Below are positions 163 through 42,675 of a DNA stretch of 61,066 nucleotides, piece after piece; the first letter of the stretch is position 1, and each line of letters begins with the position of its first letter. The notes beneath the pieces are model-generated. The model ran no database searches, was not told the origin of the DNA, and saw only the letters and a program-made list of their open reading frames with translations. Location of the stretch: assembly GCA_964592105.1 (NCBI GenBank), contig CAZQBL010000017.1:1-61066 (forward strand), read 5' to 3'. The position numbers and the translations under genes were made by a program. This DNA is from an uncultured Gammaproteobacteria bacterium (lineage in GTDB: Bacteria; Patescibacteriota; Patescibacteriia; UBA10025; JAHIVO01).

Positions 163-191
163 TTGATTTTTCTGCAAAAATATGCTATACT
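163..191 (+). promoter_or_regulatory. sigma70-type promoter (TTGATT-17-TATACT, extended -10 TG)
   Basis: TTGATT at 163-168, 17-nt spacer, TATACT at 186-191 preceded by TG; predicted start near G199. Confidence 0.6.
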
Positions 192-198
192 TAACTTT

Positions 199-370
199 GG
201 TGATCCGAACAAGCAATTGTTTGTAAGGATCCCAGCCCTCTTTTATAAGAGATAGGGCTCACCCCCACCATTTGTCTCGATTTTGAATTTAAACATCCCC
301 AATGAAAAATTGACAATAATCACCAATTTTTTGGCAGGGATAGCTGTGACAAATGGTGGGGGGTTTTCTA
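199..370 (+). ncRNA. candidate unknown structured small RNA (~170 nt)
   Basis: Begins 7 nt after the -10 box. GGTGA(199-203)/TCACC(259-263) closes two hairpins. CCCCCACCATTTGTC(262-276) pairs with GACAAATGGTGGGGG(348-362), followed by a U-rich tract. No credible ORF. Confidence 0.45.
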
Positions 371-371
371 T

Positions 372-399
372 TTGATCAATTTTTTTTATATGTTACAAT
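372..399 (+). promoter_or_regulatory. putative promoter for the SAM-I/metK leader (TTGATC-16-TACAAT, extended -10)
   Basis: TTGATC 372-377; TG at 391-392; TACAAT 394-399. Confidence 0.45.
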
Positions 400-427
400 A
401 ATTGTGTTCATCTACAAGATAACCAAA

Positions 428-613
428 TTATCAAGAGTGAGTATCAGGGAACGGCCCAATGACGCTCCGACAACCGACCTTCGCTTGTTTTCAACGAGTT
501 TTGGTCGGCAAGCCCCCCAAAAAGGCCTGCCGCCCGTAGCCTCGAGAGAAACGAGAGATGAAGAAACGGTGCCAAGTCCGACCGCCCACCTTAGTGTGGG
601 GGAAAGATAAGAG
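428..613 (+). ncRNA. SAM-I (S-box) riboswitch aptamer with enlarged P3
   Basis: Consensus elements TTATCAAGAG..GGGA.CGGCCC.ATGA..CTCCG(A)CAACC ... GGTGCCAA.TCC ... GAAAGATAAG, directly upstream of metK. Confidence 0.9.
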
Positions 614-629
614 GTTAGACTCTTCATAG

Positions 630-660
630 AATCTCTTATCTTTTAAGAGATTTTTTGTTT
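630..660 (+). terminator. riboswitch expression-platform terminator
   Basis: AATCTCTTA/TAAGAGATT stem plus U-tract; its 5' arm (CTCTTATCTTTT) can alternatively pair with AAAGATAAGAG of the P1 3' strand (antiterminator). Confidence 0.8.
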
Positions 661-673
661 AAATAATTAATAT

Positions 674-1825
674 ATGAGTGAACGAAAAAGATTGTTTACC
701 TCGGAATCAGTGACCGAGGGGCATCCAGATAAAATCTGCGACCAGATTTCGGATGCGGTTTATGACGAAATGCTAAAGCAGGACAAGAATTGCCATTCAG
801 CCGTGGAATGTTTTGTCACTACCGGCTTGGTGATCATCGGCGGCGAGGTCAAAACTACCTGCTATGTTGATATCCAGGATATTGTCCGTCGGACACTAAA
901 ACGCATCGGCTATGATAAGCCGGAGTACGGTTTTTGTTACAAGGACGTGGGTGTTATTTCCGTAATTCATGAGCAGTCATCTGACATTGCCCAGGGTGTC
1001 GATGGCACTGGGGAACGCAAAGAGCTGGGTGCCGGCGACCAGGGCTTGATGTTCGGTTATGCCTGTGATGAAACACCGGAATACATGCCTTTAACCATTT
1101 CCTTGGCTCATCGGTTGACTAGAAGGCTGGCTGAAGTTAGGAAGAAAGGCCAACTCCCTTATTTGCGGCCAGACGGTAAATCGCAAGTAACAGTGGAATA
1201 TGTAGATGACAAGCCGCACCGGATTGACACAGTGGTTATTGCCGCGCATCATTCAGAGGGCGTTGCCATGGATAAGCTTCGCGCGGACATTAAAGAGTAT
1301 GTCATCAAGCCGGTCTTGGGTGATTGGTATAATGATAAGATTAAATTTTTTATCAATGCTACCGGGCGTTTTGTCATCGGTGGGCCTCCTGGTGATACCG
1401 GCTTAACCGGCAGAAAAATAATCGTGGATACTTATGGCGGCGTGGGTGCTCATGGTGGTGGTTGCTTTTCCGGGAAAGACGTAACAAAAGTTGACCGTAG
1501 TGCTTCATACGCCGCGCGTTACATCACTAAAAATATCGTGGCGGCGGGCTTGGCAAAAAAATGCGAAATTCAGCTGGCCTATGCCATCGGCGTGGCCGAG
1601 CCGGTTTCAATCATGGTTAATACATTTGGCACTGGTACGCTGGAAAATGGCGATATTGAAGAGCTAGTCAAGAAGAACTTCCCGCTCAAGCCGGCGGACA
1701 TCATTGAGCAGCTGAATTTGCGGCAGCCCATTTATGAAAAGACCGCTGCCTATGGCCATTTTGGCCGGACGGACGTGGAGTTCCCCTGGGAAAAATTGGA
1801 TAAAGTGGAGGTATTGAAGAAGTAA
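674..1825 (+). CDS. metK: S-adenosylmethionine synthetase
   Basis: [36 protein letters not shown] motifs. Confidence 0.99.
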
Positions 1826-42588: not shown

Positions 42589-42675
42589 TGGTGCCGGAGA
42601 GAGGACTTGAACCTCCAAGCCCTTGCGGGCACATGGCCCTGAACCATGCGTGTTTGCCAATTTCACCACTCCGGC
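42589..42675 (-). tRNA. tRNA-Leu (anticodon CAG), encoded CCA
   Basis: GCCGGAGTGGTGAAATTGGCAAACACG CATGG-TTCAGGG-CCATG long variable arm GGAGGTTCAAGTCCTCTCTCCGGCACCA. Confidence 0.97.

Follow-up and report, generated by a model that had tools for sequence, protein, structure and literature searches.

The closest described relatives of the element discussed here are the SAM-I or S-box riboswitches (Rfam family RF00162), as examples of which we take the leaders of Bacillus subtilis metK and yitJ and the metF aptamer of T. tengcongensis (PDB 2GIS). In solved SAM-I structures (PDB 2GIS) the distal end of the P3 arm points away from the SAM pocket. A second point of comparison comes from Barrick and Breaker (2007; Genome Biol 8:R239, PMC2258182), who described as 'variable insertions' the long, non-conserved stem-loops found at tolerated sites of riboswitches and reported that such insertions cause genuine but low-scoring matches to covariance models.

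The DNA analysed here is a stretch of 61,066 nt (the window) from the genome of an ultra-small bacterium of the Patescibacteria. We consider it quite probable that positions 428-660 of the window form a working SAM-I switch which represses metK by termination, and that the 92 nt found in its P3 arm are a lineage-specific, tolerated expansion. The original prediction for this DNA had listed all the SAM-I core motifs along with a terminator and antiterminator, and every one of them was found where it had been placed. Its broader proposal, that of a SAM-I element controlling metK by termination, is supported by the covariance model match, a compensated pseudoknot, the expression platform and the gene context.

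The SAM-I aptamer and its expression platform

A search of region 380-700 with relaxed filters matches RF00162 to 425-613 (+), with model positions 1-108 all aligned and a score of 36.8 bits (E = 5.9e-7, or 4.6e-7 when the 1.04-Mb genome is searched as a whole). This is the sole credible SAM-I match in the genome, metK being the only SAM-I target there. The Rfam gathering score for the family is 44.4 bits, an operational cut-off and not a structural feature, and a default scan overlooks the riboswitch because its score lies below that value. As had been anticipated for searches with covariance models, the element is absent at the gathering threshold and recovered only with relaxed settings: the default Rfam scan of the 61-kb window returns a tRNA only. 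This tRNA, of 84 nt and with a long variable arm, lies at 42592-42675 (-), and its anticodon loop, read by eye, makes it a tRNA-Leu (CAG). The features of the locus are as follows.

372-399 (+): predicted sigma-70-type promoter, with -35 TTGATC at 372-377, a 16-nt spacer containing TG, and -10 TACAAT at 394-399
428-432 (+): 5' strand of P1, UUAUC, pairing with GAUAA at 606-610 over 5 bp, the three outer model pairs being non-standard (RF00162 alignment)
437-468 (+): P2, kink-turn region and P2 loop, the loop bases C452-G454 lying in the pseudoknot (RF00162 alignment)
469-475 (+): 5' strand of the P3 base, GACA-A-CC (RF00162 alignment)
476-567 (+): 92-nt P3 expansion (folding, covariation with the relatives G006 and G013, single copy)
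568-573 (+): 3' strand of the P3 base, GGUGCC (RF00162 alignment)
578-580 (+): J3/4, CCG, pseudoknot partner of CGG at 452-454
582-602 (+): P4 hairpin, with C582-G602, C583-G601 and 585-589/596-600 (RF00162 alignment, folding)
603-616 (+): 5' strand of the predicted antiterminator, AAAGAUAAGAGGUU, which holds the P1 3' strand GAUAA (606-610) and makes 14 bp with 630-643
628-660 (+): predicted intrinsic terminator, with an AU-rich stem 628-638/644-654 and loop 639-643, running into UUUUUUGUUU at 651-660
674-1825 (+): metK, S-adenosylmethionine synthetase of 383 aa (open reading frame; three S-AdoMet_synt Pfam domains, E = 1e-40 to 1e-68)

Two open reading frames that overlap the element, of 85 aa (353-610, +) and 71 aa (412-627, -), are considered spurious, the former because it starts upstream of the predicted promoter.

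The four-way junction of the family is present, made up of a P1 of 5 bp, P2, the P3 base (469-475/568-573) and P4, and folding of 425-665 gives z = -3.46, with none of 200 shuffles as good. The P3 base is formed by the pairs G469-C573, C471-G571, A472-U570, C474-G569 and C475-G568, with a mismatch A470·C572 and A473 bulged; beyond it the RF00162 alignment places 84 nt in the P3 loop, compared with nine in the consensus. Positions lining the SAM pocket match the model consensus (UUAUCAAGAG, CAAC, GGUGC and AAAGAUAA); in the 2GIS structure these positions are the U's of P1, the G of J1/2, the A-U and C-G pairs of P3 and the bulged A. The pseudoknot between the P2 loop and J3/4 provides an independent test, since a covariance model cannot represent it. 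In the window it consists of CGG/CCG at the same offset as the CUGG/CCAG of relatives, with one pair compensated (U-A to C-G) and one lost, and across the family it covaries as CUGG/CCAG, CCGAG/CUCGG, CCAAG/CUUGG, CUUGA/UCAAG, UCUGA/UCAGA and UUGG/CCAA.

Two parts of the aptamer depart from the usual sequence. The 5' strand of the kink-turn, GUAUCA-GGG against GCCGA-GGG in relatives, contains two extra nucleotides and has C in place of the usual G, which would make the second sheared pair A·C and not A·G; the 3' strand has the standard sequence, AAUGAC. This variant (window 439-449) is common to the host genome (G000) and G005 (L018), while G008 has CACCA-GGG. In P3 the mismatch noted originally is confirmed, in that the 5' strand reads CGACAACC, not CGGCAACC, and so sets A470 opposite C572, a pair corresponding to A43·C59 in T. 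tengcongensis numbering. The combination GACAAC...GGUGCC with the A·C occurs in eight aptamers from three families of the class, with compensation to A-U in G079, and the A·C occurs once among 61 other metK leaders, mostly from Firmicutes. Its recurrence in three families, along with the compensated A-U of G079, marks it as a tolerated, lineage-enriched state, possibly in the form of an A+·C wobble. Either this mismatch, which adjoins the pairs of the SAM pocket, or the atypical kink-turn strand could weaken binding.

It is the insert, the short P1, the atypical kink-turn strand and A470·C572 together that bring the score below the Rfam threshold. The NC marks of the alignment show that P1 (three pairs), P4 (two pairs), the kink-turn strand and the A·C mismatch also cost score, and the window has the lowest score in the host's family, 36.8 bits as against 44.4-69.3. 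Scores in the family drop with insert length, yet not for insert length alone: the homologous long-insert aptamers of G006 (97 nt) and G013 (100 nt) reach 51.6 and 44.4 bits, respectively, and are thus at or above the threshold. The 44.4 bits of G013 can be set against the 58.6 bits of the near-isogenic G015, with a 50-nt insert, a comparison which is a natural stand-in for removal of the insert. Very roughly, this pair suggests a loss of about 0.3 bit per inserted nucleotide, which would account for the shortfall of the window relative to 44.4 bits. Judged by its structure, the element is a SAM-I riboswitch in which only the Rfam cut-off is not reached; its kink-turn is atypical, and binding of SAM is predicted.

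The promoter has nine of 12 matches to the consensus and an extended -10 TG; it is a consensus match only, and would start transcription about 20 nt upstream of P1. Just upstream of it (window 163-370) there is a long inverted repeat of CCCCCACCATTTGT, at about 262-276, with ACAAATGGTGGGGGG, at about 348-362, followed by T's. Downstream, metK starts 61 nt past the aptamer. The fold of 598-646, which contains the antiterminator, has a predicted energy of -15.8 kcal/mol (-15.3 for the 14-bp duplex), and that of the terminator is -10.6 to -11.9 kcal/mol, with z = -4.98. The antiterminator (-15.8 kcal/mol) is therefore predicted to be more stable than the terminator (-10.6), and it shares GAUAAGAG with P1. 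A simple terminator scan made no call at 628-660, missing the terminator because its stem has just two G-C pairs. A terminator arm of CUCUUAUC type, complementary to GAUAAGAG, recurs in nearly all members of the family.

The layout is that of a textbook S-box OFF switch, from whose anatomy SAM binding, the switching steps and termination can be predicted. With SAM bound, P1 (428-432/606-610) would hold GAUAA; the terminator (628-654 and the U run) would then form and transcription would stop before metK. When SAM is absent, 603-616 would instead pair with 630-643 in the 14-bp antiterminator and metK would be transcribed.

The 92-nt expansion of P3

The expansion occupies 476-567, exactly the 92 nt first described, between CAACC, which ends at 475, and GGTGCC, which starts at 568. 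Taken alone it folds with z = -3.59, only one of 200 shuffles being as good, and two models can be drawn for it. In the first, there are three local hairpins: H1 at 474-508 (inner stem 484-487/495-498), H2 at 509-514/524-529 and H3 at 541-544/552-555. In the second, a single rod is formed by 479-491/548-563 and 495-504/534-544, with H2 at its tip (loop 515-523). In either form, self-folding of the insert would reunite the two strands of the P3 base.

Homologous inserts of 97 and 100 nt are present in G006 and G013, which are independent assemblies, and show compensatory changes; common to all three are a 5' segment CCNNCCUNCGCUU, a GGNNGG segment and a tail AACGG. The rod is the ViennaRNA prediction in all three homologues (-33.7 kcal/mol in the window, with pair probabilities mostly >0.8-0.9), and has compensated positions at insert bases 14, 16 and 17. 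The three local hairpins of the window come to -27.1 kcal/mol. When the three sequences are aligned, however, the local hairpins have 86% of cells paired and six pairs changed on both sides, a number reached by two of 500 shuffles, compared with 73.7% of cells and five such pairs, reached by 104 of 500 shuffles, for the rod. H1 is 100% paired in this alignment, having CCGACC/GGUCGG in the window and CCAUCC/GGAUGG in the relatives, with two compensated pairs in the outer stem and one in the inner.

For the three hairpins of the original prediction the evidence is divided. Their arms lie where they had been placed (CGACC 475-479 with GGTCG 503-507, GGCAAGCC 507-514 with GGCCTGCC 524-531, and CTCG 541-544 with CGAG 552-555) and they are the better supported comparatively, but the rod is favoured thermodynamically; the comparison involves three sequences, two of them near-identical in H1, which are too few to decide, and both structures were built on the sequence of the window, which gives them an advantage. 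H1 takes up C474 and C475, whose partners in the canonical P3 are G568 and G569, and strand exchange between the two would thus be possible. Together with the existence of two exclusive folds, this means that the insert may influence folding of the aptamer. Equally, the pattern CUUG..CGAG..CUCG..CGAG looks like that of a duplicated hairpin, and duplication alone would yield both folds.

Database searches with the insert yielded little. BLAST against its own genome finds the insert itself only, in a single copy, and against 400 genomes of the class produces short, chance-level matches without new homologues; a mobile-repeat origin was rejected on the grounds that no further copies are found in either set. 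No other Rfam family was found within 476-567 at E up to 10, except for a chance-level match to Twister-P5 (16.3 bits, E = 0.44), and the insert was rejected as a second aptamer for lack of any Rfam match. MetK-guided scans of genome and metagenome collections revealed no new long-insert leaders; four of the records so obtained (L034, L035, L037 and L114) duplicate G020, G002 and G013, and a fifth (L033) is the metK of G006.

Distribution in the Patescibacteria and alternative explanations

A SAM-I match is present in 15 of the 16 other genomes of the host's family and in all four genomes of a neighbouring family. In an even sample of the class there are matches in 34 of 151 genomes, 14 of these 34 reaching the gathering score. 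Each of the family leaders examined lies directly before metK, with the exception of that in G006. In this genome, the closest relative, the riboswitch (L022:1501-1695) precedes an open reading frame of 320 aa (L022:1760-2719) with weak similarity to MTHFR/MetF (22.8 bits, slightly short of the cut-off of 24). Its metK (L033:1501-2649) lies about 3.2 kb downstream of the riboswitch, and the arrangement may be a metF-...-metK operon. The closest MetK proteins come from metagenome-assembled genomes (MAGs) of the Patescibacteria group, and some homologues are named Candidatus Kerfeldbacteria. In the MetK tree the protein of G020, a genome assigned to another family (f2), is placed next to those of G000/G006 and G002, with about 90% identity, while the MetK proteins of the congeneric G002 and G013 are only about 74% alike, a pattern that may reflect exchange of a metK cassette between lineages. 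The lineage had originally been characterized as one with few described riboswitches; this agrees with our literature search, which found no report of native SAM riboswitches in Patescibacteria/CPR.

Measured from anchor to anchor, P3 lengths in the family are 13, 24, 26, 26, 27, 38, 39, 43, 48, 50, 59, about 60, 87, 94 (the window), 97 and 100 nt. Those parsed in other families of the first sample of relatives are 16-41 nt, and the 14 SAM-I aptamers of a Bacilli genome have total lengths of 104-122 nt. Other metK leaders, parsed by regular expression, have a P3 of 7-28 nt, which is a rough baseline only since the screen caught 30 of 160. Long P3 expansions do occur in other families of the class (f45 and f31), with lengths of 97 and 109 nt, but they are unrelated to that of the window and unlike it in sequence and shape: the 97-nt P3 of G126 is Y-shaped and closed by CCCGCCC/GGGCGGG, and the 109-nt P3 of G114 is a rod. 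Within the family, G004 also has a P3 rod, of 87 nt.

Placing these lengths on the MetK tree is instructive. The long-insert genomes G000 and G006 are sisters (support 97/96), and the P3 arms of their next neighbours measure 18 and 26 nt. A very close sister pair (support 99/99) is formed by G013, with 100 nt, and G015, with 50 nt; their aptamer cores are almost identical and their inserts differ by indels of 13, 31 and 6 nt, with the remnant in G015 folding at only -2.1 kcal/mol. The core is thus strongly constrained and the insert is not. The comparison of insert conservation proposed at the outset thus has a divided outcome: there are homologous inserts of 97-100 nt with compensatory changes in G006 and G013 but, on the other hand, the insert is halved in G015 and P3 varies from 13 to 100 nt in the family.

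A different P3 design is seen in six members of the family (L007, L023, L021, L004 and L006, each from 1501, and L205). Directly after CAAC there is a mini-hairpin with a GAA triloop and a covarying stem (CGC/GCG, UGC/GCA, CAC/GUG, CUCC/GGAG), then a YCCUGA...UCAGGR hairpin like the normal upper P3 stem of other families. The two hairpins suggest a branched P3. L205 is the second of two SAM-I riboswitches in G012 (G012:C1:826568-826736, -); it is 169 nt long, and its P3 insert of about 80 nt has three hairpins, including one with a U-rich loop, CCUCCUC...GAGGAA. Separately, a hairpin of CCCGC...GCGGG type is inserted in the P2/kink-turn region of SAM-I aptamers from other families of the class, L030 (G036), L028 (G049), L206 (G079) and L207 (G140), and is not found in the window.

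Our best reading of the insert is as a lineage-specific 'variable insertion' at a tolerated site, with no second sensing module. Being tolerated and fast-evolving, it is most likely neutral or a mere modulator of folding, and the 92-nt expansion probably leaves the working of the riboswitch unchanged. A caveat to neutrality is that inserts of about 95-100 nt with compensated stems exist in three genera, with sequence conservation of the 5' part (CCNNCCUNCGCUU), and this conservation exceeds that of pure junk. It is the same homologous inserts, of 94-100 nt, that give some weight to an alternative we consider unlikely, namely that the insert is a functional module, be it a timer or switch of co-transcriptional folding, a platform for protein or RNA, or a second sensor tuning the SAM response. 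H1 is completely paired and compensated, the six two-sided changes of the local model being matched in two of 500 shuffles, the 5' segment is conserved, all three inserts can adopt the two exclusive folds, local hairpins or rod, and H1 overlaps two C residues of the canonical P3. In the timer version, H1 would first sequester C474/C475 and then exchange strands with G568/G569. Yet these are three sequences only, two of them near-identical in H1, and they sit at the end of an almost continuous range of P3 lengths, from 13 to 100 nt, in a family where the sister species G015 retains the core but only half of the insert and little of its folding energy. Furthermore, the nearest MetK relatives of G000/G006 have a short P3 (18 and 26 nt), the long inserts of other families are unrelated in sequence and shape, no known RNA family matches the insert, and the X/X'/X/X' pattern (CUUG..CGAG..CUCG..CGAG) is that expected from hairpin duplication, which by itself gives two folds. 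The second module entertained in the original prediction is thus disfavoured, given the lack of another Rfam family, the spread of P3 from 13 to 100 nt and the half-length, barely folding insert of G015. More specifically, the P3 expansion of G000, G006 and G013 could be a selected folding device in which, as transcription proceeds, H1 would tie up the two C's of P3, so that the SAM pocket could close only after strand exchange with G568/G569 or refolding of the insert into the rod; we regard this as quite improbable. If true, the insert would determine the time window or SAM threshold at which the riboswitch acts in a slow-growing episymbiont, and would provide a naturally occurring case of an aptamer arm with inbuilt kinetic tuning. 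More generally, an effect of the insert on folding kinetics ranges, in our view, from unlikely to quite improbable.

Two further explanations concern the integrity of the element as a whole. In one, which we judge very improbable, the riboswitch is decaying: with its P3 insert, A·C mismatch, P1 of 5 bp and changed kink-turn, it would have lost SAM sensing and be left as no more than a constitutive attenuator or a read-through leader. This would fit with a score of 36.8 bits, the lowest in a family whose other members have 44.4-69.3, three non-standard outer pairs in P1, a pseudoknot of 3 bp instead of 4 and a genome reduced to 1.04 Mb. However, the positions lining the pocket are intact (UUAUCAAGAG, CAAC, GGUGC and AAAGAUAA), the pseudoknot change is compensated, and the antiterminator is a perfect 14-bp match to the arm of an intact terminator, a state that would not be expected to survive decay. 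The A·C, too, is found in eight related aptamers of three families, the same position being compensated to A-U in G079, and metK is the sole SAM-I target in a genome 15 of whose 16 relatives retain the element. In the other, which is extremely improbable, the 92 nt would stem from misassembly or from the recent insertion of a mobile repeat (MITE) and would not belong to the evolved structure of the RNA. MAG assemblies can indeed be chimeric, but the insert is single-copy in its genome, no copies were found among 400 genomes of the class, homologous inserts lie at the same position in two independent MAGs (G006 and G013), and the insert sits exactly between the two P3 strands and folds on itself.

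Comparison with described systems

These results indicate that Patescibacteria/CPR genomes use the classical SAM-I riboswitch on metK. Default Rfam annotation under-counts SAM-I in this lineage because the peripheral arms are often expanded. The P3 arms of 13 to 100 nt, set on an almost constant core, form a natural series that offers a ready test of how much peripheral RNA a four-way-junction aptamer tolerates, and of any effect that such expansions have on co-transcriptional folding. The window leaves the understanding of the SAM-I mechanism as it was.

When compared with the SAM-I/S-box riboswitches (RF00162; the metK and yitJ leaders of B. subtilis), the window is alike in its P1-P4 architecture, in the presence of all 108 model positions and in core sequence, in the pseudoknot of the P2 loop with J3/4 and in its place upstream of metK. 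It also has the same OFF platform of terminator and antiterminator, with the 3' strand of P1 shared with the antiterminator. In contrast, its P3 carries 92 nt where the usual tip is of about 6-25 nt, A·C replaces the normal G43-C59 pair, P1 is limited to 5 bp, two extra nucleotides and a C for the usual G are found in the kink-turn strand, and the score is below the Rfam gathering threshold. With the 'variable insertions' (PMC2258182) it has in common an insert that is long, poorly conserved, located at a tolerated peripheral site and folded into stable stem-loops, and a match to the covariance model that is genuine but low in score. It differs from them in that the expansion is recurrent here, both within a single family of Patescibacteria, where it spans 13-100 nt, and in further families of the same class, and in that one version of it has been kept, with compensatory changes, in three genera.
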